13,460 bases of DNA, taken from a bacterium. GTDB taxonomy: Bacteria; Zhuqueibacterota; Zhuqueibacteria; Oceanimicrobiales; Oceanimicrobiaceae. The DNA is taken from NCBI GenBank assembly GCA_046757025.1, contig JBHHXN010000143.1, positions 1 to 13,460 of the forward strand, read 5' to 3'. Below are positions 1-13,223 of the stretch, one piece after another. The first letter of the stretch is position 1, and each line of letters opens with the position of its first letter. The notes beneath the pieces are model-generated. The model was not told the origin of the DNA and ran no database searches. It saw only the letters and a list, made by a program, of their open reading frames with translations. A program made the translations under genes and the position numbers.

Positions 1-2576
1 AAGCCGAGCTGCCGCTGCTTGTGATGGCGGACGTGGAGTGGGGCTTGCCCATGCGCGTGGACGAGAGTACGCGATTTTTACAAAACATGGCCATCGGCGC
101 CACGGCTAACGAAACGTACGCGTATGAAATGGGGGCGATTACGGCCAAAGAAGCTCGGGCCATCGGCGTGCACATCGGCTTTGCGCCGGTGCTGGATGTG
201 AACAACAATCCGGACAACATTATCATCAACACGCGCTCGTTTGGAGAAGAGCCGTCCCTGGTGGCGAAGCTTGGCAGTGCCTTCATCAAAGGTCTGCAGG
301 ACCACGGCGTGTATGCCACGGCCAAACATTTTCCCGGGCACGGCGATACCAACATCGATTCGCATCTGTCCTTACCCACCATTTCCGCTTCGCGCGAGCG
401 CATTCGAACGGTGGAGCTGCCGCCGTTTCGAGCCGCGGTGGAGGCCGGCGTAAAATGCTTCATGGTAGCGCACATCACGTACAGCGATTTTCCCGAAATG
501 CAGGGCCGGCCGGCCACCCTCGATAAATATTTTATCCAAGAGGTGTTGCGAAAAGAGATGGGCTTCGACGGGCTGGTTTTCACCGACGCCATGGGCATGG
601 GCGGCATTACAGAGAACTACTGGTCCGGTGAAGCCGCGGTCCTGGCTATCAATGCCGGCATAGACATGGTGTTGTTATCGCCAAATTTTGAAGCCACGTT
701 CGACTTTGTTGTGCAAGCCGTCAAAAGCGGTCGCATTGCCATGCAGCGCATCGACGAATCTGTGAAGAGAATATTGCAGGCCAAGCTGGCTTTCGGGCTG
801 GATCGCAAGCCCGAAATCCGATTTGAACAGATGGAATCCATCATTGCCTCTCCCCAGCATCAGGCAAAAGCCGAGGAGATGGCGGATGCAGCCATGACCC
901 TGCTACGGGACGACAAAAACCTCTTTCCCCTGCAAGCCGAAAAACTCAACAGCGTGCTGGCGCTGACGGTTTCCGATGATCCGGCCTACGTTTTTCGCGG
1001 CGACGCCATGAACCGGGAAATCGCCTGGCGGGTGCCGGGCATGCAAACCGCCTTTGTGGACCCCAGAACAACCGAAGAGGAGATGCAGGAGATTGTGGCC
1101 AAAGTCGATTCGGTAGATGCCGTAATTGCAGGCGTGTTCGTGAAATGGGGCAGCTACAAAGGCTCCATCGCGCTGCCCGACACCACCGCGAAGCTGCTTT
1201 CAGACTTCTTCAAAATGGATAAACCCATGGCGGTGGTCGCTTTTGGCTCGCCGTATGTCATCCGGCAAATTCCGGACGTACCTTCCTATTTGTGCGCTTA
1301 CGAGACCGTGCCTTTGGCCGTGCGTTCAGCCATGCGGGCGGTCTTTGGCGAAATCCCTCTCAATGCAAAGCTGCCGGTCTCCATTCCAGGCTTCTTCGAG
1401 ATCGGCGATGGACTCGAACGACCCCGCCGCATGATGGAGCTGGTGAAAGCCATTGACGACGATATTTTGGAAGACGCGTATGCGGTGTTGAAGAAGGCCA
1501 TTGCCGATTCGATTTTCCCCGGCGCCCAAGTGGCGGTGATACGCGACGGTAAAATAATTGCCAGCCGCGGGTTTGGCCGGCAGAAATACGAGCCGTCTTC
1601 ACCGGCTGTGACCAGGGAAACGATTTATGATCTGGCTTCGGTCACCAAAGTAGCGGCCACCACCGTCACCGCCATGCGCTTGTGGGAACAGCGAAAAATT
1701 GTCCTGGATATCCCGGTGAAAAGCTATTTGCCCGATTTTCAGGGCGGTGAAAAAGACGCGGTGACCCTGCGTCATCTGCTGACCCATTCCTCCGGCGCCC
1801 ACTGGTGGGTGGACCTCTGGAACAAAGCCCAAAACAAACAGGAAGCGCTGGAATACATTTATCAGCTTCCGCTTGATTTTGCGCCTGGCGATTCCATGAT
1901 TTACTCTGATTTGGGTTTGATCATGGCGGGAAAAATTCTGGAAACGGTGACCGGCAAACCGCTGGACCAACTGGCGGCGGAAACCATCCACAAACCATTG
2001 GGGATGAAAAATACCATGTACAATCCTCCGAAAGCCTTGCTCAGCAGAATCGCGCCCACAGAAATCGGCGGCAGCATGAACCGCGGTTTGATCCACGGCG
2101 ACGTGCACGATGAAAACGCGTTCTTCTTGAACGGGGTGTCTTCGCACGCCGGGCTGTTTTCCACCGCCGAGGATCTGGCCATCCTGGCACAAATGCTTAT
2201 CAACGGCGGCATTTACGGACATCGTCGTTATTTTTCACCAACTACAATCAAATATTGGACCCGCCGGCAGCATCTGCCGGAGTGGAGTGACCGTGCCATC
2301 GGCTGGGATACGCCTTCTGATGAGCGCTCGTTAGCCGGGGACTATTTTTCCGAAGGCAGCTTTGGGCACACGGGGTTTACCGGCACGTCCATCTGGGTGG
2401 ATCCTAACCGCAAAATCGCCATCATCCTTTTGACCAATCGCGTTTATCCCACACGCGAGCGCGGCGGTATGTCTCAGGTGCGGCGGGATTTTCACAACGC
2501 CGCCATGAAAGCGATCTTGCAAGAAATGGGCGAGGAGATTTCTGACGAGAAAGAAAAATCGTCTGAAAAGTTCTAA
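1..2576 (+). CDS. GH3 beta-N-acetylglucosaminidase (NagZ-type) fused to a C-terminal serine hydrolase/beta-lactamase-fold (AmiE-like) domain; 5'-partial
   Basis: The frame is open from base 3 (AELPLLVMADVEWG), so the gene starts upstream of the window and GTG21 is not the true start. GH3 motifs: APVLDVNNNP..IINTRSFG, the NagZ signature KHFPGHGDTNIDSH (from nt 324), and the nucleophile in VFTDAMGM. The C-terminal domain has SxxK (ASVTK, Ser at nt 1638), LLTHSSG, YSDLG and GHTGFTG. Confidence 0.93.
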   Translation, partial: AELPLLVMADVEWGLPMRVDESTRFLQNMAIGATANETYAYEMGAITAKEARAIGVHIGFAPVLDVNNNPDNIIINTRSFGEEPSLVAKLGSAFIKGLQDHGVYATAKHFPGHGDTNIDSHLSLPTISASRERIRTVELPPFRAAVEAGVKCFMVAHITYSDFPEMQGRPATLDKYFIQEVLRKEMGFDGLVFTDAMGMGGITENYWSGEAAVLAINAGIDMVLLSPNFEATFDFVVQAVKSGRIAMQRIDESVKRILQAKLAFGLDRKPEIRFEQMESIIASPQHQAKAEEMADAAMTLLRDDKNLFPLQAEKLNSVLALTVSDDPAYVFRGDAMNREIAWRVPGMQTAFVDPRTTEEEMQEIVAKVDSVDAVIAGVFVKWGSYKGSIALPDTTAKLLSDFFKMDKPMAVVAFGSPYVIRQIPDVPSYLCAYETVPLAVRSAMRAVFGEIPLNAKLPVSIPGFFEIGDGLERPRRMMELVKAIDDDILEDAYAVLKKAIADSIFPGAQVAVIRDGKIIASRGFGRQKYEPSSPAVTRETIYDLASVTKVAATTVTAMRLWEQRKIVLDIPVKSYLPDFQGGEKDAVTLRHLLTHSSGAHWWVDLWNKAQNKQEALEYIYQLPLDFAPGDSMIYSDLGLIMAGKILETVTGKPLDQLAAETIHKPLGMKNTMYNPPKALLSRIAPTEIGGSMNRGLIHGDVHDENAFFLNGVSSHAGLFSTAEDLAILAQMLINGGIYGHRRYFSPTTIKYWTRRQHLPEWSDRAIGWDTPSDERSLAGDYFSEGSFGHTGFTGTSIWVDPNRKIAIILLTNRVYPTRERGGMSQVRRDFHNAAMKAILQEMGEEISDEKEKSSEKF

Positions 2577-2600
2577 TCTGTTATTCAGACTTCTAATTCG

Positions 2601-2660
2601 TTTGAAATATTTTCAAAAGCAATTTCTGAAAATATTTTTGGTTCAAATCATTTTGAACCA
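2601..2660. promoter_or_regulatory. Operator-like inverted repeats upstream of the first symporter
   Basis: TTTGAAA-tat-TTTCAAA (2601-2617) and TGGTTCAAA-tcat-TTTGAACCA (2639-2660) both have perfect arms. A consensus TTGACA lies at 2681-2686, but no good -10 sits at canonical spacing. Confidence 0.45.
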
Positions 2661-2806
2661 CATAGGACGAAGCTGTTATATTGACATTCATTACACGGCA
2701 TTTGAACTTTAGTTGCAATTCTCGATTAGCCAAACATCTATTTAAATACTAAATAACTCAGTCAATAATCCCTTACTGTTTCGCATGATTAACACAAGGA
2801 GCGCCA

Positions 2807-4297
2807 ATGGGTTTTTCTACAATTGATATAATTATTGTTGTTGTGTATATGGCAGTTTCCGCAGGCTTTGGCGCCTGGATTGGCCGCAAGCAAAAGGACA
2901 CCACGGACTATTTCCTCGGCGGCCGGCGCATTCCCTGGTTCGCGGTGACCTTCAGCATCGTCGCCACCGAAACCAGCGTCCTCACTTTCATCAGCATTCC
3001 TGCGGTTTCCTACCAGGGCAACATGACCTTCCTGCAAATCGTGTTCGGATACGTGGTGGGAAGAATCCTCGTGGCGCTGATCCTGATTCCCGCCTACTAC
3101 CGCGGCAGCATGGACACCGCCTACCATTTTCTCGGCGCCCGCTTTGGTCAGAAAATGCGCAACACCGCCAGCGTGACTTTTATGTTGACGCGCTTGTTAG
3201 CCGACGGCGTGCGGCTGTTTGCCACCGCCATTCCGCTGGCCATCATCATCAAAGGCAGCGGCGCGTTTAGCGGTTTTTCCGATTCGCAGTTTTACGCCCT
3301 GTCGATTTTGTTCATCGGCTTGCTGACCATGGTTTACACCTACATTGGCGGCATCCGCTCCGTCATCTGGATGGACGTGATTCAGATGGCCATTTACATG
3401 GGGGGAGCCATTCTGGCCGTTATCCTGATTTTGAATCGCCTGCCGGAGGGACTGGCTACAGTCACCAATTGGGCCGCTGACGATGATAAATTCCAGTGGC
3501 TGTATTGGGGATCAGAACTGCCGTTTGCCGAATTTATCCAAAAACCGTACACTTTTTTTACAGCATTGTTCGCCGGCGCGATTTTCAGCCTGGCGTCGCA
3601 CGGCACCGATCAGTTGATCGTGCAGCGCGTGTTAACCTGTAAAGATAAAAAGGCCGGCCAAAAAGCCATTGCGTTTAGCGGATTTGCCGTACTCATCCAA
3701 TTTATTATTTTTCTGTTTTTAGGAACTTTACTTTTTGCCTATTATAAAGGTCTCAGCCCCGACGAGTTGGGATTAACCCGGGCTGATGGCATATTCCCGA
3801 AATTTATTGTAGAAGAAATGCCCAGTGGCATCAGCGGTTTGATTGTCGCAGCCCTTTTTGCTGCCGCCATGAGTACGCTGTCGAGCAGCCTTTCCAGTCT
3901 GTCGAGTGCAGCGGTATTGGATATTTATATTCCGCTGGCAGGCAAAAGCAAGTCCGATGCTGAGCTGTTGAAAATATCCCGTCTGGTCACCCTGGTCTGG
4001 GGCGTCGTGTTGATGCTGGCGGCGGTGGTTTTTATCGGTTTAAAAGGCACGGTGGTGGAGGTGGCTCTGGGCATTGCCTCCTACACTTACGGCGGGTTGC
4101 TGGGTACGTTTTTGTTAGGGTTGATCTATAAACCGGCGGTGCAGCGGGACGCTATCATCGGATTCATTTTTGCCCTTTTGGGTATGGCGGTGGTCATTCA
4201 AACCATTCAGATCGCCTGGCCGCTTTACACGGTGGTGGGAAGTCTGACGACCGTCGTCGTCGGTATTTTATCCCATAAAGTTTTTTCGCGTGCCTGA
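2807..4297 (+). CDS. Sodium:solute symporter (SSS/SLC5 family), 496 aa; probable sugar/amino-sugar importer
   Basis: RBS AAGGAG (2796-2801). Many hydrophobic TM segments. SSS motifs DYFLGGRRIPW, SIVATETS, YTYIGGIRSVIWMDVIQ, GTDQLIVQRVL and GLIVAALFAAAMSTLSSSLSS. The substrate is inferred from gene context only. Confidence 0.92.
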   Translation: MGFSTIDIIIVVVYMAVSAGFGAWIGRKQKDTTDYFLGGRRIPWFAVTFSIVATETSVLTFISIPAVSYQGNMTFLQIVFGYVVGRILVALILIPAYYRGSMDTAYHFLGARFGQKMRNTASVTFMLTRLLADGVRLFATAIPLAIIIKGSGAFSGFSDSQFYALSILFIGLLTMVYTYIGGIRSVIWMDVIQMAIYMGGAILAVILILNRLPEGLATVTNWAADDDKFQWLYWGSELPFAEFIQKPYTFFTALFAGAIFSLASHGTDQLIVQRVLTCKDKKAGQKAIAFSGFAVLIQFIIFLFLGTLLFAYYKGLSPDELGLTRADGIFPKFIVEEMPSGISGLIVAALFAAAMSTLSSSLSSLSSAAVLDIYIPLAGKSKSDAELLKISRLVTLVWGVVLMLAAVVFIGLKGTVVEVALGIASYTYGGLLGTFLLGLIYKPAVQRDAIIGFIFALLGMAVVIQTIQIAWPLYTVVGSLTTVVVGILSHKVFSRA

Positions 4298-4422
4298 GTC
4301 GGGGTGATTTTTTAAAATTAAAGAAAGACTATTGCATAAATTAACTGAATCAACTAAATCAATCTGAAATCATCATTGCGGTTTTGTTTTCTCATTTGGG
4401 CTTAACCATAAAAAATATCAGG

Positions 4423-4485
4423 GTCATTGGGAATCTCCTGCCTGAATCACATTTGGATTCCCGCTCAACACCACGCGGGAATGAC
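4423..4485. repeat. REP/dRS3-like palindromic element, left half degenerate
   Basis: The stem ATTCCCGC(4457-4464)-10 nt loop-GCGGGAAT(4475-4482) ends in GAC. The outer ends GTCATT(4423-4428) and AATGAC(4480-4485) are complementary, and GGGAATC(4429-4435) is complementary to GATTCCC(4456-4462). It resembles the widespread GGATTCCCGC..GCGGGAATGAC intergenic repeats. Confidence 0.6.
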
Positions 4486-4500
4486 ACTTGAGGAGCAGAT

Positions 4501-4551
4501 ATGAAAAAAATAAAATGGTTCAGGTTCTCTGTTTTCGATGTGGAAGCGTAG
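4501..4551 (+). CDS. Putative 16-aa small ORF (MKKIKWFRFSVFDVEA); leader peptide or gene remnant
   Basis: GAGGAG at 4490-4495, 5 nt before ATG4501; TAG at 4549-4551. It is below the ORF-track size cut-off. Confidence 0.3.
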   Translation: MKKIKWFRFSVFDVEA

Positions 4552-4604
4552 CAATTTGAAATACAAATGGACGTTATCATTCAAAAATTACGGAGGGGTC
4601 AGAA

Positions 4605-6362
4605 ATGCAGGTCAGTTTTCTCGATTGGACATTTGTCGTCGTATATTTTGTTTTAGCGCTGGGAATTGGATTATATTTTTCCAAAAGAGCCGGCGGCAAT
4701 ATTACAGAGTATTTTACATCCGGGAGAAGTTTGCCCTGGTGGTTGGCGGGTACCAGCATGGTCGCCACGACCTTTGCTGCAGATACCCCCCTGGCCGTAA
4801 CCGAACTTGTGGCCAATCATGGCATCGCTGGCAATTGGCTCTGGTGGAACATGGTGATGAGCGGATTGCTAACGGTTTTTTTGTTCGCCCGACTGTGGCG
4901 GCGAACCGAAGTCCTGACAGACGTGGAATTTACCGAACTCAGATATTCCGGCAAACCGGCGGCCATTTTGCGCGGTTTCAGAGCGCTCTACCTGGCCATT
5001 CCCATCAACCTGATCATTTTGGGCTGGGTGACACTGGCATTAGTCAAAATAATTGAATTGACCATCGGCGTGGATAAATGGATTGCTGTGGGAATATGCG
5101 TGGTCGTGACGTTACTTTACAGCGGTTTAAGCGGACTCTGGGGCGTAGTAATGACCGATTTCCTGCAGTTCATCATCGCCATGGTTGGCTCCATCGCACT
5201 GGCCATTTTCGCCACCGACGCGGTCGGCGGAATTGGCGGCTTAAAAACCGAGTTGATTCGAATTTACGGCCCGGAACACGACGTGCTCAACTTTGCGCCG
5301 GCGGTCGGCTCGGTCTGGATGCCGGTGACCGCTTTTTTGGTCTATCTTGCGGTTAACTGGTGGGCGGCCTGGTATCCCGGCGCCGAACCCGGGGGCGGTG
5401 GTTACATTGCCCAGAGAATGTTTTCCACAAAAGATGAGCGCCATTCGTTTTTAGCCACGCTCTGGTTCAACATTGCGCATTATGCCCTGCGGCCCTGGCC
5501 CTGGATCATGGTGGCTTTGGCCAGTCTGGTGCTGTTCCCGGATATTGAAGATAAACAAACCGGCTACATTTTAGTTATGCTCAATCACTTGCCCGTGGGC
5601 TTTAAAGGACTGTTGCTCGCGTCTTTTGCAGCAGCGTTCATGTCCACGGTCAGTACCCAGCTCAACTGGGGCAGCTCCTACCTGGTGAACGATTTTTACA
5701 AAAGATTTGTGAAGAAAGATGGATCGCCGGAACATTACGTTTTGGTTGCCCGCCTGGCAACCGTCGGCCTGGTGTTAGCCGGCGCCGTGGTGACTTCGCA
5801 GATGGAAACCATCGCCGGCGCCTGGAAATTCTTGCTGGCGCTGGGAGCGGGAACCGGCGCGGTTTATATCCTGCGCTGGTTCTGGTGGCGAATCAATGCC
5901 TGGTCCGAGATTTCCGCCATGATCACGTCCTTTGTGGTGGCGATATTCCTGCAATCCGTGCTGGGCATGGACACCGCCGACGCCAACGTGTTCGCGAAAG
6001 TTATGTTGATCACGGTAGCGGTGAGTACTTTAGTCTGGCTGACGGTGACGTTTCTAACCCGTCCTGAAAAGGAAGAGACCTTACTGAAATTCTACCGAAA
6101 AGCCCGACCCGGCGGCAACCTCTGGAAACCCATTTCAGCCCGGGCTCCGGAGGTGGCGACCGACAAAGGATTAGGCTGGGATTTTTTGGACTGGGCTGTG
6201 GGGCTGGCGCTGATTTATTCGGCACTCTTTGGCGTGGGAAAAATCATTCTGGGCTCCACTCTGATTGGCTTTTCGTTGTTAGCATTGGCGGCGGCTTGTT
6301 TTGTTTTTATTCGCTGGGATTTGAATCGCCGAGGGTGGAAGACATTCGGTGAGGAAAATTAA
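4605..6362 (+). CDS. Sodium:solute symporter (SSS/SLC5 family), 585 aa; second, distinct subfamily
   Basis: RBS GGAGGGG (4592-4598). Motifs EYFTSGRSLPWWLAGTSMVATTFAADTP, YSGLSGLWGVVMTDFLQF, GGGYIAQRMFS and GLLLASFAAAFMSTVSTQLN. Multiple TM helices. Confidence 0.92.
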   Translation: MQVSFLDWTFVVVYFVLALGIGLYFSKRAGGNITEYFTSGRSLPWWLAGTSMVATTFAADTPLAVTELVANHGIAGNWLWWNMVMSGLLTVFLFARLWRRTEVLTDVEFTELRYSGKPAAILRGFRALYLAIPINLIILGWVTLALVKIIELTIGVDKWIAVGICVVVTLLYSGLSGLWGVVMTDFLQFIIAMVGSIALAIFATDAVGGIGGLKTELIRIYGPEHDVLNFAPAVGSVWMPVTAFLVYLAVNWWAAWYPGAEPGGGGYIAQRMFSTKDERHSFLATLWFNIAHYALRPWPWIMVALASLVLFPDIEDKQTGYILVMLNHLPVGFKGLLLASFAAAFMSTVSTQLNWGSSYLVNDFYKRFVKKDGSPEHYVLVARLATVGLVLAGAVVTSQMETIAGAWKFLLALGAGTGAVYILRWFWWRINAWSEISAMITSFVVAIFLQSVLGMDTADANVFAKVMLITVAVSTLVWLTVTFLTRPEKEETLLKFYRKARPGGNLWKPISARAPEVATDKGLGWDFLDWAVGLALIYSALFGVGKIILGSTLIGFSLLALAAACFVFIRWDLNRRGWKTFGEEN

Positions 6363-6477
6363 CTGGCATTTATTGAACACTTTTGGACAATACCTGAAAA
6401 GTGGATTTCGTTTAAACCGCTTTTCTTTAAATCTTAATGTAAAAAACTGGAAGCTTAATAGATTGTGCAATTTAGAT

Positions 6478-6506
6478 TTGCCTGATAATGGTAAATTTTG
6501 TAAATT
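6478..6506 (+). promoter_or_regulatory. Candidate sigma70-type promoter for the R-M cassette
   Basis: TTGCCT(6478-6483)-17 nt-TAAATT(6501-6506), about 50 nt upstream of ATG6557. The region is AT-rich, so a chance match is possible. Confidence 0.3.
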
Positions 6507-6556
6507 GATAAATTATTAAAGAGGCTAAAATTTTACAGAATTGAATGGCTTAAATT

Positions 6557-7885
6557 ATGAAAACCACTCACAAATGTATCATCGGCGACTCCAGAAAGAT
6601 GAAAGAGGTAGAAGACTCTTCGGTGCATCTCATCGTCACCTCGCCCCCTTATTGGCAATTAAAAGATTATGGAACTACAAATCAGATTGGATTCAACGAT
6701 TCTTATGAGGTGTACATAAATAACCTCAATCTTGTTTGGAATGAATGTAATCGAGTTCTGCACCCGGGATGTCGAATGCTGATAAATATTGGCGATCAAT
6801 TTGCCAGAGCAGTTTATTACGGAAGATATAAGGTTATTCCAATCCGTACTGAAATCATTAAGTTTTGCGAGGCAATTGGTTTCGATTATATGGGAGCGAT
6901 CATCTGGCAAAAGAAAACAACCATGAACACAACCGGGGGCGCAACCGTGATGGGTTCTTTCCCATTTCCTCGCAACGGAATCATTGAAATTGATTATGAA
7001 TTCATATTGATTTTTAAAAAACCTGGCCAAAGTCCTAAAGTAAGCACGGCAGTCAAAGAACAATCTCGAATTCCAAAAGAAAAATGGAAAGAATATTTTT
7101 CTGGTCACTGGTATTTTAACGGAGCTAAACAAGACCATCATATAGCAATGTTTCCCATTGAATTGCCAAAACGAGCTATTGAGATGTTTACCTTTGTTGG
7201 TGAAACCGTTCTTGATCCATTTCTTGGTAGTGGGACAACTTCTCTGGCTGCAATGATAAAAAATAGAAACTCTATCGGTTATGAAATCAATAAAGATTTT
7301 TTGCCTGTCATCAAAAAGAAGTTGAACGCTGAAACAACTTCCTTATTTAGCGAAAATGAATTCATCTTAGAAGAGCAGGCCCCTGTGGATATCGATTTGA
7401 ATACTGAAATTGAAAAAATGCCTTATCTTTTTTCAGATCCAGTGAAATTTGATAAGAAAGTTGACCCAAACAAACTCAAGTTTGGCTCGAAGATAAGTGT
7501 TGTTGATGGAATAAATGGAGCCAAGCGGGAACAATATTATACGGTTAAACAATTAATTTCACCTAACCTGATTAAGCTAAACAACGATTTAATTGTTCGA
7601 TTAATTGGCGTGAAGCCCAGCTCTACAAATCAAAACGCTGCCATGACATTTTTAACCAATAAAATACTAAGCAGACAAATATTTCTCAAATTTGATGAAA
7701 CGAAATATGACAAAAATAACTATCTAATGGCCTATGTTTATATGAAAAATAAAACTTTTGTCAACGCGCATCTTCTGAAGCACGGTTTTGCTGAAATCGA
7801 CACTGAATTTTCTTTCAAGTACAACCAGAAATTTGAGAAACTACTACAGAAAAAATTCCATTATGAAAACGAAACTAAAACTTAG
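6557..7885 (+). CDS. Site-specific DNA methyltransferase (N4/N6 family, beta class, probably m4C) with a C-terminal degenerate thermonuclease (SNase-like) domain
   Basis: Catalytic motif IV VTSPPY (TSPPY at nt 6638-6652) precedes SAM-binding motif I VLDPFLGSGTT (DPFLGSGTT at nt 7214-7240), which is the beta order. HIAMFPIELP and IGYEIN are also present. SPPY is typical of m4C enzymes. Residues ~326-432 (YTVKQLISPNLIKL..VRLIGV..KYDKNNYLMAYVY..FVNAHLLKHGFA) follow the SNase pattern. Confidence 0.9.
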   Translation: MKTTHKCIIGDSRKMKEVEDSSVHLIVTSPPYWQLKDYGTTNQIGFNDSYEVYINNLNLVWNECNRVLHPGCRMLINIGDQFARAVYYGRYKVIPIRTEIIKFCEAIGFDYMGAIIWQKKTTMNTTGGATVMGSFPFPRNGIIEIDYEFILIFKKPGQSPKVSTAVKEQSRIPKEKWKEYFSGHWYFNGAKQDHHIAMFPIELPKRAIEMFTFVGETVLDPFLGSGTTSLAAMIKNRNSIGYEINKDFLPVIKKKLNAETTSLFSENEFILEEQAPVDIDLNTEIEKMPYLFSDPVKFDKKVDPNKLKFGSKISVVDGINGAKREQYYTVKQLISPNLIKLNNDLIVRLIGVKPSSTNQNAAMTFLTNKILSRQIFLKFDETKYDKNNYLMAYVYMKNKTFVNAHLLKHGFAEIDTEFSFKYNQKFEKLLQKKFHYENETKT

Positions 7886-8450
7886 TAATGACGAAATCAA
7901 AGTATTATTAGGATGTAAGTCTTATGATTTCCCCAAGTATTCCACGCAAATAATAAATCTTGCAAATCAAAACTCACAGGGTACCCGTCCCGCTGTGGTT
8001 GGTCAAATGAGTGAATTGATTCAGCAGTTCTCAGGTCAATCCATTGAAGAATGGGAAAAATGGTATTTAGAGAAACACCCTGAAGCCATTCAAAAAGCCA
8101 CTGAAAAAATTAGAAAAATGATAAAAAACCTTCAGTCTGCCATGGAGCAGATTGACGAACAGATGATTGAAAACTGGGTAAAAGATTTGGTACTCATAAA
8201 GACCTACATCGGTCTGCAATTTCAAGAGGCCATTTTGATCAAACTATCCCAACTTCATCAAACATCTTACCGATTGGCCTCGCGCGAGGAAGAATCCCAA
8301 GGTATCGATGGCTTTGTGGGAAAGATGCCGGTAAGCATCAAGCCCGAATCTTACAAATCTAAAAAAGGCTTGCAAGAATAAATCGCAGCAAAATTCGTTT
8401 ACTACAAGAAAGTCAAGGGTGGGGTCGTAATCGATCTGTCTGAGCTTTAA
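7863..8450 (+). pseudogene. MjaI-family type II restriction endonuclease with an in-frame premature stop at 8379-8381 (open frame 7863-8381, 172 aa; 195 aa if read through)
   Basis: The probable start ATG7863 overlaps the MTase end by 23 nt. FPKYSTQIINLANQNSQGTRPAVVGQMSELIQQF and EESQGIDGFVGKMPVSIKP match my recollection of the RE_MjaI family (PD-(D/E)xK-like core). After TAA the same frame continues IAAKFVYYKKVKGGVVIDLSEL to TAA8448-8450. Confidence 0.75.
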
Positions 8451-8456
8451 ATAACA

Positions 8457-8478
8457 AGCGAATTCCTCGTTCTTTTTT
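8457..8478 (+). terminator. Weak candidate intrinsic terminator after the R-M cassette
   Basis: A short stem AGCGA-attcc-TCGTT is followed by CTTTTTT, immediately after TAA8450. Confidence 0.25.
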
Positions 8479-8643
8479 ACGATTAGTTTCTGGGAGTCAG
8501 AATCGCCAAAATTCCTCTATTTTCATCGCTGACACAAAAAGAGCAATCCGGTGCAAAGATAACCAGCAGTCGTTGAGTAGCCTTTAAAGGTTGGTTTAGT
8601 TTTAAATATGCAAACCTGAAACTCGGTAAAAGGAGAAATTATC

Positions 8644-9930
8644 ATGCAGTTCAAAAAATGTCGTGAAGTTTTTCCAAACACCTTGTTTGTCGTTCTGCTC
8701 TGGGGGTTGGCCGGGCTTTTTTTTCAAGAAAGCTGTGCGACTTCAAGCCGTCGGCAGGCTAAACAATTTAGTTCCGAGAGACAACAAGCCATTCAAGATT
8801 CACTGCAAAAAGCCCGGGAATTTGAAATCCAGAAGTACCTGAGTTTTGGACGCGAAAATTGGAAAAACAAGATGTTCACCGACGCACTGCCGCATCTGTG
8901 GAAAGTGGTAGATTTGGACACAGAAAAAAAGTACCCGATGGCGTTTCAATATCTCGGTGAATGCTATCTCAAGCTTGCGAAGCCGGACAGCGCTGAATTT
9001 GTTTACCGACAAGCCATCGAAAAATATCCGGCCAATTCTTACTTTCATCGCATGCTGGGCTGGCTGCTCAATAGCCTGAGAAAATATGAGCAGGCGGTTT
9101 TCGAGTATCGGGAAGCGATTCGGCTGGATTCCGTGGCACGGGCGGATGACTATCGCGCGCTTGGGATTTTGCTGGTGCAATTGGACCGCCGACAGGAAGC
9201 GCTGCCGGTCTATGAAAAGCTCGTTGAGCTTGAGCCAGATGACATCGAGGCTTTGATTGTGCTGGCAAATCTTTATATGTTTGTTGGAGAAGAAGAAGCA
9301 TCTTTAACTGTGCAGGAGCGGGCGTTAGTACTCGACCCCCAAAATACCAAACTCCTGTACAGTCTGGGCGAAGCTTACTACAAACGCCATGAATTTGAAA
9401 AAGCTATTGCAAAATTCAAACAACTACTTACTATCACCCCCGAAGATATTTTGGCGCTGGAAATTTTAGGGTATGCCTTTCAGAATGCCGGCGATCCTAA
9501 AAACGCCATCGCAGCTTATGAAAAAGTTTTGTCCTTGAAACCTGACCACAAAAAAGTGTTGTGTGAAATGGCCACCAGTTTGAAAGAACTCAAACAATAT
9601 CGAGCAGCACGAAGTACGGTGCGCAAAGCCTTGAAAATGGATCCCCATTATGGTTATGCCAATATCGTACTGGGCGAAATTTACGAAAGCGCAGCCAACA
9701 ATTGTCTTGAACGCCGCGAAGACAAAACCATTCGTTTTGACGATAAACTGGTTTTTGAATTGGCATTTCAACAGTTTCAGAAAGCCGCAGGTGATCCGGC
9801 ATTTGCGGGCATGGCAAAAACAAAGTTGGATTACGTGAAGAACGACATTCCCACCCGTGGAGACCGACACATGCACCCTGATCAGAAATATCCTCGGTTG
9901 GATTGCTATAAATGGATCGTTGAGGATTGA
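8644..9930 (+). CDS. Tetratricopeptide-repeat protein with an N-terminal signal/anchor, possibly a lipoprotein
   Basis: RBS AGGAG (8631-8635). A basic N-terminus and hydrophobic stretch (LFVVLLWGLAGLFF) precede a Cys. Repeated ~34-aa TPR units include LLYSLGEAYYKRHEFEKAIAKFKQLLTITPED and ALEILGYAFQNAGDPKNAIAAYEKVLSLKPDH. Confidence 0.85.
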   Translation: MQFKKCREVFPNTLFVVLLWGLAGLFFQESCATSSRRQAKQFSSERQQAIQDSLQKAREFEIQKYLSFGRENWKNKMFTDALPHLWKVVDLDTEKKYPMAFQYLGECYLKLAKPDSAEFVYRQAIEKYPANSYFHRMLGWLLNSLRKYEQAVFEYREAIRLDSVARADDYRALGILLVQLDRRQEALPVYEKLVELEPDDIEALIVLANLYMFVGEEEASLTVQERALVLDPQNTKLLYSLGEAYYKRHEFEKAIAKFKQLLTITPEDILALEILGYAFQNAGDPKNAIAAYEKVLSLKPDHKKVLCEMATSLKELKQYRAARSTVRKALKMDPHYGYANIVLGEIYESAANNCLERREDKTIRFDDKLVFELAFQQFQKAAGDPAFAGMAKTKLDYVKNDIPTRGDRHMHPDQKYPRLDCYKWIVED

Positions 9931-9988
9931 ATATGGAGGGCGTGTGTCGCCATGAAATTTTTCGAAATTTTCAGGAGGATTGAATCTC

Positions 9989-11032
9989 ATGTCATTTGAA
10001 CTCTGGTCGCTGTATAAGGCAATGCTGCGCAGCCGTTTGTTTGAAGAAGCGGTAATCGAAATTTGGAACGACGGTAAAATCTCAGGTGAAATGCATCTCG
10101 GCCTCGGAGAAGAAGCGATTGTGGCAGGTGTGGTGGCGCAGCTCATCGACGGCGACGCCCTGGCGCTGGATCACCGCGGCACCCCGCCTGTGCTCATGCG
10201 CGGCGTGGATCCGCTGCTATTGCTGCGCGAGTTTTTAGGCCAACCCGACGGACTGTGTGCCGGCCGAGGCGGACACATGCACCTGTTTTCGCGTGAACAC
10301 CTTATCGCGTCGTCGGGCATTGTGGGCGCTTCCGGGCCCGCAGCCGTGGGATTTGCCCTGGCGGCCCGGCATCTTCGTCCCAAAAATCTGGCAGTGGCCT
10401 TTTTCGGAGAAGGCGCCATGAACCAGGGCATGCTCATGGAATCCTTGAATTTAGCGGTGGCCTGGAATCTGCCGGTGATCTTCGTTTGTAAGGACAGCCA
10501 GTGGGCCATCACCACTCGTTCCGAGTCGGTTACCGGCGGCAGTTTGCTCGAACGCGCCCGCAGCTTTGGCATGCCGGCGGCAGAGGTCGATGGCAGCGAC
10601 GTGGAAACGGTCTGGAAGGCCGCCGAAGTAAGCAGCGTCCGTGCCCGACGCGGCAAAGGACCCTCTTTTCTTTACGGTCAATGTTTTCATCCGGAAGGCC
10701 ATTTTTTAGGGGATCCGCTTTTGCGCGTGGCCCGGCATCCCTTGCGGGAAATGAAAGAAATCGGCGGACCTCTGCTAAAATCCGTTATGAAGGGGGATGG
10801 CGCTTCCGTAACTAAGAGGAGCGGCCGTCTGGGAACCGTAACGGCGTTGATCGGAAAAACCGCGAAAGAGCAGTGGGTCAAGCAAAAGGATCCCCTGATC
10901 GAGACTCGCTCAAAATTGCAGAAAACCGATAAAAAACGCCTGCAAAAATTAGAAACCGAAATCGCCAAAGAAATTAAAACGACCGTCGAAGCGGCATTGG
11001 CTTTTTCTGTAGAGGAGAGGGAACGCTCATGA
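9989..11032 (+). CDS. TPP-dependent dehydrogenase E1 alpha subunit (pyruvate/acetoin/2-oxoacid dehydrogenase family)
   Basis: Motifs GEMHLGLGEEA, HRG, GRGGHMH, SSGIVG, TPP-binding FFGEGAMNQG..ESLNLAVAWNLPVIFVC, EVDGSDV and GHFLGDP. ATG9989 is preferred over TTG9980 because AGGAGG (9973-9978) is 10 nt from the ATG but only 1 nt from the TTG. Confidence 0.9.
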   Translation: MSFELWSLYKAMLRSRLFEEAVIEIWNDGKISGEMHLGLGEEAIVAGVVAQLIDGDALALDHRGTPPVLMRGVDPLLLLREFLGQPDGLCAGRGGHMHLFSREHLIASSGIVGASGPAAVGFALAARHLRPKNLAVAFFGEGAMNQGMLMESLNLAVAWNLPVIFVCKDSQWAITTRSESVTGGSLLERARSFGMPAAEVDGSDVETVWKAAEVSSVRARRGKGPSFLYGQCFHPEGHFLGDPLLRVARHPLREMKEIGGPLLKSVMKGDGASVTKRSGRLGTVTALIGKTAKEQWVKQKDPLIETRSKLQKTDKKRLQKLETEIAKEIKTTVEAALAFSVEERERS

Positions 11033-12042
11033 AAAACAGGACTTTCGCACAGGCCATTGAAGACGCGCTGGCTCAGGCCATGGCCGAGGATTCCCGAGTG
11101 GTTATTTTTGGTGAAGATATCCATCTGCTGCGCGTGAACTTATTTGCGCGCTTTGGCAAGGAGCGAGTGCGCGCCGCACCCATCAGCGAAAGCGCGTTTG
11201 TGGGGGCGGCCGTGACCGCGGCCATGGCGGGATTGCGGCCGGTGGTGGAGGTGATGCTGGTGGACTTCATCGGCGTGGCCGTGGATGCCCTGCTGAATCA
11301 CGCCGCAAAGTTAGAGAGCTTTTCCAGCGGCAAATGGCAGTCGCCTCTGGTAGTACGGGCAGCTTGTGGCGGCGGTTACGGTGACGGCGGCCAACACGAG
11401 CAAACTCTGTGGGGCTGGTTAGCGCACATTCCGGGTTTGACGGTTGTGGTACCTTCAAACCCGGCCGACGCCGGCGGTTTGATGCTTTCTGCCATCGAAC
11501 ATTCGGGGCCGGTGATCTATTTGGAGCATAAATTGCTGTCGGATTACTGGCGGGATTACCTGGGGGCCGGCGGCAGAAAAACCGTACACTATGACGTGCC
11601 GCAAGCAGGAAGAGAGGGCACGGTGACCGATACTTGGCAGCCTCTTCCCCTGGGGCAGGCCACAGTCCTGCAGGAGGGCCGCGACCTCACTCTGGTGAGT
11701 GTGGGCGTGGGAGTACACCGCGCGCTGGAAGCCGCAGCGGAGCTGAAAAAACAAGAGCTGGCTTGCGAAGTCATCGATCTGCGCACAGTCTGTCCGCTGG
11801 ATAAGGAAACCATGTCTAATTCCGTTGCCAAAACCGGCCGGCTGCTGGTGGTGGATGAAGATTATGAGCGTTTCGGGCTTTCAGGAGAAATAGCGGCGCA
11901 GCTGTTAGAATCTGGTTTGAGCTTTAAATATGCCAGAGTTTGTACCCGGGAAACCATCCCGTACGCGCGTGAGCTGGAAAATCAAACTCTTCCCAACACA
12001 CAACGGATCGTTGAAGTCGCTACCCGTTTAGCGGATGGTTAG
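11029..12042 (+). CDS. TPP-dependent dehydrogenase E1 beta subunit
   Basis: ATGA overlap with the alpha gene stop. Motifs FGEDI, APISESAFVGAAV, GLRPVVEVMLVDF, QHEQ, HIPGLTVVVPS, EVIDLRTVCPLD and SVAKTGRLLVVDE. Confidence 0.9.
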   Translation: MKNRTFAQAIEDALAQAMAEDSRVVIFGEDIHLLRVNLFARFGKERVRAAPISESAFVGAAVTAAMAGLRPVVEVMLVDFIGVAVDALLNHAAKLESFSSGKWQSPLVVRAACGGGYGDGGQHEQTLWGWLAHIPGLTVVVPSNPADAGGLMLSAIEHSGPVIYLEHKLLSDYWRDYLGAGGRKTVHYDVPQAGREGTVTDTWQPLPLGQATVLQEGRDLTLVSVGVGVHRALEAAAELKKQELACEVIDLRTVCPLDKETMSNSVAKTGRLLVVDEDYERFGLSGEIAAQLLESGLSFKYARVCTRETIPYARELENQTLPNTQRIVEVATRLADG

Positions 12043-12355
12043 CGCCGAGGCCGGGCGTTGGCAGCATAGAAAATCTTGTTTAAATGAATCCATCCAAAAT
12101 GACGGCATTGAACCCGCTGCATTACCAGTGAAAGCCCTTCTCTCGTTTACACGGAATCCAAAATAGCGGGATAAGCTTTGCGAAACCATTTAGGTTAGAA
12201 TAGAGGCTAGAGAATGGTTCGGGGCCGTGACAAGGGACGTAGCGATTGGGCGGGCAATGATAACACTTTTTATAAGCCCATCGCAATGTTGAAATACCAT
12301 TGACTTGTAGGATGGTTCGGACCGCTGCACGTCAATCTCGACAAAAAAGTTTCGA

Positions 12356-12384
12356 TTGAAAATATCATTTTTGATTTGTATAAT
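12356..12384 (+). promoter_or_regulatory. Near-consensus sigma70 promoter for nagB
   Basis: TTGAAA(12356-12361)-17 nt-TATAAT(12379-12384), about 100 nt upstream of the nagB start. Confidence 0.65.
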
Positions 12385-12485
12385 GGTCAGGATTCTTTTT
12401 GAGCAAACGATCAAAATATTTGCTTTATGAGGTTTAACTGAAAAAGGTGTTCACGAAATAACGCACAATTTAAGGAGGGATTCCC

Positions 12486-13223
12486 ATGTTGGTTATCGTT
12501 AAAGATGATTATGAAAGTATGAGTGTGGAAGCGGCGCGTCGGGTAGTAGATTTGATCAAAAAGAAACCCGATTGTGTTTTGGGTCTGGCAACGGGCAGCT
12601 CGCCCCTGGGACTTTATAAAGAACTGATCAGAATGCACAAAGAAGAAGGGCTGGATTTTGCACGGGTTACCACGTTCAATCTCGATGAGTATGTAGGGCT
12701 TCCAGAGGAGCACGACCAGAGCTACCACTATTTCATGAACGAAAATTTGTTCAATCATATAAACGTCGACCGGCGATTTGTTCACGTTCCAAACGGCATG
12801 GCTGAAGATATCGAAAAAGAGTGTGAGGAATACGAGCAAAAAATTTTGGATGCAGGGGGTATCGACTTGCAAATTTTAGGCATCGGCGCCAACGGTCACA
12901 TTGCTTTTAATGAACCGTACTCATCATTGGGTTCGCGTACCCGTATCAAAACTTTGACCGAGAAAACCCGCCAGGACAATGCGCGTTTTTTCAAATCCAT
13001 GCAGGAAGTGCCCAAATACGCTATTACTATGGGGGTAGGCACCATCATGGACGCGCACACGCTCATCCTGGTGGCAAACGGAGAAGGAAAAGCCGAAGCC
13101 ATCGCTAAAACCGTGGAGGGTCCCATAACCGCTATGGTGCCCGCCACCATCGTGCAAATGCATCGGGACGCTATCATCATCGTCGACCGGGCCGCGGCTT
13201 CGAAATTAAAATTGCAAACCTGA
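12486..13223 (+). CDS. nagB: Glucosamine-6-phosphate deaminase
   Basis: RBS AAGGAGG (12472-12478). Signature motifs LGLATGSSP, TFNLDEYVGL, GGIDLQILGIGANGHIAFNEP and AITMGVGTI; 245 aa. Confidence 0.97.
   Translation: MLVIVKDDYESMSVEAARRVVDLIKKKPDCVLGLATGSSPLGLYKELIRMHKEEGLDFARVTTFNLDEYVGLPEEHDQSYHYFMNENLFNHINVDRRFVHVPNGMAEDIEKECEEYEQKILDAGGIDLQILGIGANGHIAFNEPYSSLGSRTRIKTLTEKTRQDNARFFKSMQEVPKYAITMGVGTIMDAHTLILVANGEGKAEAIAKTVEGPITAMVPATIVQMHRDAIIIVDRAAASKLKLQT

Follow-up and report, generated by a model that had tools for sequence, protein, structure and literature searches.

A likely inactive staphylococcal-nuclease-fold tail, conserved in a common family of beta-class DNA methyltransferases

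What is the use of a nuclease-like domain attached to a DNA methyltransferase (MTase)? This question is raised by a two-gene cassette (6557..8450) found in the window, as we call the whole stretch of 13,460 nucleotides analysed here. The first gene (6557..7885, plus strand) is an open reading frame coding for a 442 amino acid beta-class N4/N6 MTase, which ends in a domain resembling staphylococcal nuclease (SNase). The second gene (7863..8381, plus strand) codes for a restriction endonuclease of the MjaI family, and its start overlaps the end of the MTase gene by 23 nt. The initial annotation regarded the SNase-like domain as apparently catalytically dead, and suggested several functions for it.

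The cassette has a GC content of 0.37, against 0.47 for the genome. The dip (0.32–0.40) covers positions ~6250–8500, and the housekeeping genes elsewhere in the window have values of 0.48–0.60. The cassette lies between genes for a sodium:solute symporter and a TPR protein. The genome has one close copy for the MTase gene, and likewise for the endonuclease gene. The cassette, a type II restriction-modification (R-M) pair, has spread horizontally. The surrounding regions (21–6362 and 9980–13223) are ordinary: They code for a GH3/beta-lactamase-fold fusion, two sodium:solute symporters, a TPR protein, the alpha and beta subunits of a dehydrogenase E1 and a glucosamine-6-phosphate deaminase. Repeats, a promoter and a terminator were sought around the cassette, and nothing telling was found.

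The catalytic core of the MTase (residues 1–260, 6557..7336, plus strand) is defined by its motif order, its Pfam match and its fold. PF01555 matches residues 23–254 (E 2.8e-40), and TSPPY (motif IV) precedes DPFLGSGTT (motif I), which is the beta-class order. The best fold matches of the core are TTHA0409, N4CMT, M.RsrI, CcrM and M.PvuII. In a model of the full-length protein (pLDDT 81.7, pTM 0.69) the core matches beta-class MTases and the C-terminal part matches SNase. Core and C-terminal domain are joined by a linker with a conserved, lysine-rich motif (F.DP..FDKK.DP.KL.FGSKI, residues 291–317, 7427..7507, plus strand), which was recognised by column conservation. In an alignment of 120 rows the mean conservation of linker columns 296–316 is 0.83, close to the 0.85 of the core, against 0.56 for residues 261–295. 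The linker is weakly ordered (pLDDT 55–72) both in the full-length model and in the model of the C-terminal part.

The C-terminal domain (residues 324–435, 7526..7861, plus strand), which we will call the tail, is matched by PF00565 (SNase) on residues 360–429, with an E of 1e-6 and 29.6 bits (cut-off 21). The stretch 7532..7885 that had first drawn attention corresponds to residues 326–442. A search of the PDB with the single tail sequence gave no SNase match, a tail profile of 17 rows reaches SNase only at E 0.03, and BLASTP of the tail against the free SNase of the same genome gave no alignment. An AlphaFold2 model of residues 291–435, built from 88 sequences, has a mean pLDDT of 89.7, with values of 96–98 over the domain. 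Compared with 48,161 solved chains, it superimposes on staphylococcal nuclease 1sta with Z 15.7 and an rmsd of 1.7 A over 111 residues (22% identity). Tudor-SN domains follow with Z 13.3–14.4 and eTudor with 6.7–11.5, and unrelated OB folds only reach about 4. Foldseek agrees with the SNase fold (E 7e-8). In the ESM Atlas, the SNase and MTase clusters are at 0.82–0.88, below the 0.9 mark. The characteristic SNase OB fold with three helices is present in the model, by which the C-terminal domain is a staphylococcal nuclease fold, as had been read from the sequence by eye.

We refer to the key SNase residues as D19, D21, R35, D40, E43 and R87, with the numbers and roles that we take them to have: D21, D40 and E43 act as calcium ligands and general base, and R35 and R87 bind phosphate. 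The IDGDT motif is replaced by ISPNL in the tail, so that D19 becomes S335 and D21 becomes N337. Free SNases aligned to the same profile place R35 at R348, which is kept, D40 at K353 and E43 at S356. R348 and K353, where the charge is reversed, lie in the former active-site cleft (7598..7615, plus strand). Alignment to an SNase from the PDB shows DKYGR replaced by DKNNY, with Y389 at the position of R87. The initial mapping of these residues was correct.

The loss is found in the whole family. All domains were aligned to one profile built from 120 rows, and 175 close fused domains were compared (119 database proteins, 55 loci and the query, which are overlapping sets of related members). The GD of the DGD motif is missing from every one of the 175, and D40 and E43 never occur in the same domain. 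The most complete members are six domains that retain three of the five key residues. The position of R35 is arginine in 163 of 175 and lysine in 11, and that of D40 is lysine in 159 and arginine in seven. The R87 position is variable, with arginine in 37 of 175. A more distant set was taken from the best 150 representatives of 50% clusters, of which the 97 domains lacking a gap at a key position were counted. Among the 52 of these with an MTase or linker attached, GD is found in one and D40 plus E43 in one. GD is found in 11 of the 45 unattached domains, which are a mixture of family fragments and free nucleases. On the same profile, all five key residues are found in three of the four free SNases from this phylum, so the profile maps the active site correctly. 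A FastTree phylogeny groups 15 catalytic-like domains and a further free one in a clade of 16 tips (support 0.995). No fused domain falls inside this clade, which fits a single origin of the fusion.

The tail is also basic, with 17 K/R and 8 D/E in residues 327–434. The mean net charge of the fused domains is +7.8, versus +2.2 for four free domains. Y393, N398, T400, F401, N403, H405 and K408 are the most invariant residues of the tail, and may be structural or belong to another surface. Taken together, the alignments suggest that the tail is likely catalytically dead. A precedent for caution is Tudor-SN, which according to excerpts of PMC2441809 has weak nuclease activity on nucleic acid despite changes in most of its active-site residues; for this reason we only infer that the tail is dead. 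A weak or metal-independent cutting or nicking activity of this kind, for which the retained R35 and the arginines at the R87 position might speak, is clearly improbable here: No acid is conserved at the positions of D19, D21, D40 and E43, at most three of the five residues survive, in the six cases mentioned, and the R87 position varies freely.

Other SNase-like sequences were also noticed. The free SNase of the same genome (L001:628-984, G000:C85) has 118 amino acids and contains YDGDT, RLARINAPE and GKYGR motifs. It immediately follows the C-terminal portion of a Type ISP restriction-modification gene. Two unrelated proteins, P0147 (1096 amino acids, also with FecR and HEAT matches) and P0261 (707 amino acids), contain several degenerate SNase-like repeats, so pseudo-SNase repeats exist outside MTases as well.

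The fusion is abundant. When residues 265–442 were used as a query, 1143 proteins were found at E <= 0.001 among 1353 candidates. The best 120 of these all carry PF01555 and most also PF00565; one of them is the protein of the window. Titled records of relatives include Calditrichota, KSB1, Desulfobacteraceae, Zixibacteria, Nitrospirota and Spirochaetota. In the phylum of the window, 61 of 167 genomes have a match to the domain profile, which in a few cases is due to a free SNase. In these 167 genomes there are 57 MTase cores with 63–100% identity, and 49 of them are part of frames of 416–481 amino acids with a tail match. Six of the other eight reach contig ends and two are truncated, one past the linker (genome G063) and one within the core (G013). 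On the other hand, linker and tail are both missing from all ten fetched paralogues, whose identity is about 40%. In these comparisons the tail is tied to one MTase clade. No match to the tail is found in 50,697 phage records. Among 72,556 plasmids, the tail search gave one free thermonuclease, and no record covers 80% of the MTase protein. We should also note that NCBI labels some family members as 'thermonuclease family protein', a name at odds with the missing catalytic residues.

The initial annotation saw in this architecture the best candidate for an undescribed system. This does not hold: The PADLOC type II MTase model PDLC03259 (MTase_II) spans the whole protein (residues 3–429 on positions 2–422 of a model of 423, 574 bits, E 4.4e-173), and the relatives and intact fusions just counted are numerous. 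What the window contains is an ordinary R-M pair from an abundant type II family that is already catalogued, its endonuclease having been broken recently. The function of the domain, on the other hand, does seem to be undescribed, as a literature search aimed at it, among papers open without subscription, found nothing.

Two individual loci deserve mention. In G063 the truncated gene (L071:2350-3291) is an orphan, an open frame of 314 amino acids which ends right behind the FGSKID motif of the linker: It is a natural deletion of the tail. In another relative (L015:3344-4153 and 6991-9491) the cassette sits amid further genes which, judged by eye, are probably also involved in restriction-modification.

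The breadth of the family bears on one alternative, a tail which has a structural or protein-interaction function (stability, oligomer formation, docking of a host factor, a decoy for phage inhibitors) and makes no contact with DNA. The strongest conservation is indeed found beyond the old cleft, in the stretch Y.Y.KNKTF.NAH..K and in the linker motif, and excerpts of PMC2441809 and PMC7641849 describe SN5 of Tudor-SN and eTudor as pseudo-SNase scaffolds. Nevertheless, R35 and the new lysine are present in the phosphate-binding cleft nearly throughout, the tail as a whole is basic and belongs to an enzyme which acts on DNA. Besides, horizontal transfer has taken the tail into many phyla, and that it works there speaks against a partner specific to one host. 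We regard a purely structural function as unlikely, though not negligible, and the decoy function suggested initially found no support.

The second gene of the cassette matches PF09568 (RE_MjaI) with an E of 1.8e-61. An Asp and an IKP motif (PD-(D/E)XK residues) are conserved across 19 relatives and are present in the window. The gene has 172 codons to a premature TAA (8379–8381), which deletes the last 23 residues seen in relatives. Past the stop, 22 codons remain in frame (8382..8450, plus strand) and match what in intact relatives are the C-terminal strands. The stop does not stem from an assembly error, because contigs of three runs (X1, X2 and X3), all from one study, share it, X1 or X2 being possibly the source of the window. 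In a contig of a fourth run of the same study (X4, depth 5.3) the base differs and the codon is open, so the stop is polymorphic in the population. From the truncation we infer that the endonuclease is no longer active here.

The 52 loci of the phylum show different situations behind the MTase gene: 25 have an intact endonuclease (an overcount by at least two, as the genes of the window and of G076 are broken), six have a broken one, 20 have none and one lies at a contig edge. The tail is whole in the 20 loci with no endonuclease. Genes overlap or abut in most of the intact pairs. The partners of this MTase family belong to two PADLOC endonuclease families, only 20–25% identical to each other, which are interspersed on the MTase tree, a quick tree with SH-aLRT support only.

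The group which we call family f15 shows what happens to the tail when the endonuclease is gone. Nine of its orphan MTases form one clade (support 82 on the quick tree). A search with PF09568 of the genomes of this clade gave no match, and eight of the ten orphan f15 genomes are 93–100% complete. Genus g71 retains the endonuclease (three intact, one broken), and genera g68–g70 have none in the whole genome. The GC content of the MTase genes of g68–g70 is now within a few points of their flanks. The f15 gene is found at a shared locus, beside a menaquinone MqnA-domain gene or an ArgZ-like gene (Pfam on five neighbours). A fusion of a radical-SAM (CofH/MqnC-type) and an MqnA domain, of ~630–650 amino acids, lies upstream of the MTase in some cases (L053:2-1945, L060:130-2007, L059:1-1236).

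Substitution rates were estimated by the Nei-Gojobori method with the dS of the whole gene; pairs are non-independent and many dS values are near saturation, so to be read with these limits are the dN/dS values of the tail, 0.11–0.28 in ten orphan pairs of genus g68 and 0.03–0.17 in eight pairs with an endonuclease. Pairs with G155 and G158 give 0.11–0.20, as far as their dS could be estimated, and pairs with G154 give 0.18–0.61. The ratio of tail to core distances has a median of 3.3 among orphans (36 pairs) and of 3.0 where an endonuclease is present (105 pairs). R35, N398, N403, H405 and K408 are invariant in 18 aligned orphans. Selection on the tail is somewhat weaker in orphans than beside an endonuclease. 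As judged from these substitution patterns, the tail of the orphan clade is under purifying selection which does not depend on a partner endonuclease. G154 (L056) is a case apart: Compared with its sister orphans, a sub-clade with G156 (L057) and G153 (L062), its tail is only 45–51% identical and its core 80–91%, which suggests either faster change or a swapped tail.

The tail is selected in orphans and it is kept with exchanged endonucleases; its job therefore survives the loss or exchange of the endonuclease. This independence, as far as it can be read from sequences, is what is new here. A tail which binds and controls the overlapping endonuclease, as had been suggested, would agree with the overlapping or abutting genes and with the slightly stronger selection beside an endonuclease. 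We consider it most improbable, since selection continues in orphans and the same MTase family is found with two distant, interspersed endonuclease families. Moreover, the endonuclease of plasmid pFZ1, 58% identical to that of the window, has a tail-less MTase.

Autoregulation is another proposal: The tail would act in place of a C protein, on the promoter or the mRNA of its own operon. Some MTases repress their own promoter and OB folds bind single strands, which may be said in its favour, and no ORF with the size of a C protein precedes the MTase in the window. On the other hand, the tail persists in long-resident orphans, where no endonuclease has to be timed. An upstream gene is listed for 12 f15 loci; in eight of them it lies on the same strand and is followed by the MTase start after 21–46 nt, which leaves little room for an operator of its own. 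CTAG, the likely target sequence (see below), is found within 150 nt upstream in only three of 55 loci, no common upstream motif is seen by eye, and promoter-like matches in the window are at chance level (five found, 6.9 expected). Such a function received no support, and we keep it as an improbable alternative.

The reading that we moderately favour is a likely dead SNase-fold module which likely serves the MTase itself by non-specific DNA binding. A basic, metal-free SNase cleft is tied to one MTase clade, so holding DNA is the simplest job that fits. The view of a non-catalytic OB-fold module thus stands as regards the SNase fold, the lost metal acids, the conservation and, probably, nucleic acid binding; its coupling to the endonuclease does not. 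The domain would have been acquired, probably once, from a free nuclease of the SNase family. Catalysis would then have been lost, as an active nuclease may be intolerable in a cytoplasmic enzyme bound to DNA. R35, the lysine at the D40 position, the basic domain and the lysine-rich linker would hold DNA for methylation. The nonsense change in the endonuclease of the window would be a recent, early step toward the orphan state of many relatives.

Some observations count against DNA binding. Most beta-class MTases, including the pFZ1 (MthZI) enzyme, have no such tail, so it is not generally needed for the chemistry or, probably, for the target. In addition, the orphan of G063 has lost the tail, that of G154 is divergent, and selection is weaker in orphans.

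A more specific form of DNA binding may be imagined, which is tentative and rather doubtful: A large clade of m4C MTases would have domesticated the fold of a toxic nuclease of the secreted type. The change from a calcium-binding Asp to Lys would have made a metal-free phosphate clamp, and paired tails in an MTase dimer would grip the duplex or prise it open for methylation, in convergence with CcrM, and be essential enough to outlive the restriction partner. Precedents exist for the favoured, simpler reading of DNA binding as well. CcrM, as far as excerpts of PMC6787082 describe it, is a beta-class dimer with a core (1–260), a linker and a C-terminal domain (271–358) which binds the non-target strand in trans, and deletion of this domain abolishes activity. 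In Tudor-SN, according to the excerpts already cited (PMC2441809), paired degenerate SN domains keep their phosphate-binding clefts and form a basic clamp for nucleic acid. A complex prediction with two cores (1–290) and the linker and tail (291–435) scored 0.08 against a mark of 0.32, which gives no answer and counts for neither side.

In summary, the tail is a conserved and unstudied part of a very common MTase family, partly mislabelled as thermonucleases in databases, and the comparison removes the popular guess that it controls the endonuclease. If it works like the CcrM domain, beta-class MTases would have gained an accessory strand-holding module a second time, independently, and the tail would be a clear bacterial pseudo-nuclease.

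The SPPY motif is typical of m4C enzymes. Of all 4-mers in the genome, CTAG shows the strongest depletion (O/E 0.35), but it is rare in many bacteria. The target of the window system is likely CTAG with m4C, as suggested by the resemblance of its endonuclease to the pFZ1 enzyme, the SPPY motif and, weakly, the depletion of CTAG. The closest known systems are MjaI and MthZI; the latter we presume to be carried by Methanothermobacter plasmid pFZ1 (NC_001337), whose record only names an MjaI-family endonuclease. As in the window, a PF09568 endonuclease (58% identical over 157 amino acids) is found with a beta-class SPPY MTase. The pFZ1 MTase differs in being only 34% identical, in belonging to PADLOC PDLC03283, in having no SNase domain and in being convergent with its endonuclease.

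MjaI and MthZI recognise CTAG, according to excerpts of PMC2615612, and M.MjaI makes m4C (PMC4752239). LomA is an orphan CTAG m4C methylase with a regulatory role, as an excerpt of PMC7708080 reports. The methylome table of PMC4752239 contains 14 CTAG MTases, including M.Cab13497I from Caldithrix abyssi DSM 13497, an m4C enzyme with a cognate Cab13497IP. A genome assembled from a metagenome and titled Caldithrix abyssi (L007) has the fused gene and an intact endonuclease. A characterised fused MTase was sought by sequence, and none could be tied to the family.

How does the MTase of the window compare with known systems? It is a member of the PADLOC PDLC03259 family (PF01555 plus PF00565), whose model assigns no function to the tail. 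The likeness to CcrM is one of analogy: Both consist of a beta-class core (about 260 residues), a linker and a C-terminal domain (about 90–110 residues), for which the same role may be proposed. CcrM differs in having a SAND/PWWP-like domain instead of an SNase fold, and in making m6A in GANTC. With the NCBIfam model for CcrM (NF050803), the MTase of the window scores 34 bits against a cut-off of 830, which gives no sign of orthology, and the CcrM domain is absent among the best 50 structure matches listed for the tail, beyond which a weak match may lie. Staphylococcal nuclease has the same fold, and the tail differs from it at D21, D40 and E43 (N337, K353 and S356) and in the absence of the DGD motif and R87. 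Tudor-SN and eTudor also share the fold, and catalytic residues are changed in the tail as in Tudor-SN. Compared with both Tudor-SN and SNase, the tail is distinguished as a single domain on a cytoplasmic DNA methyltransferase.
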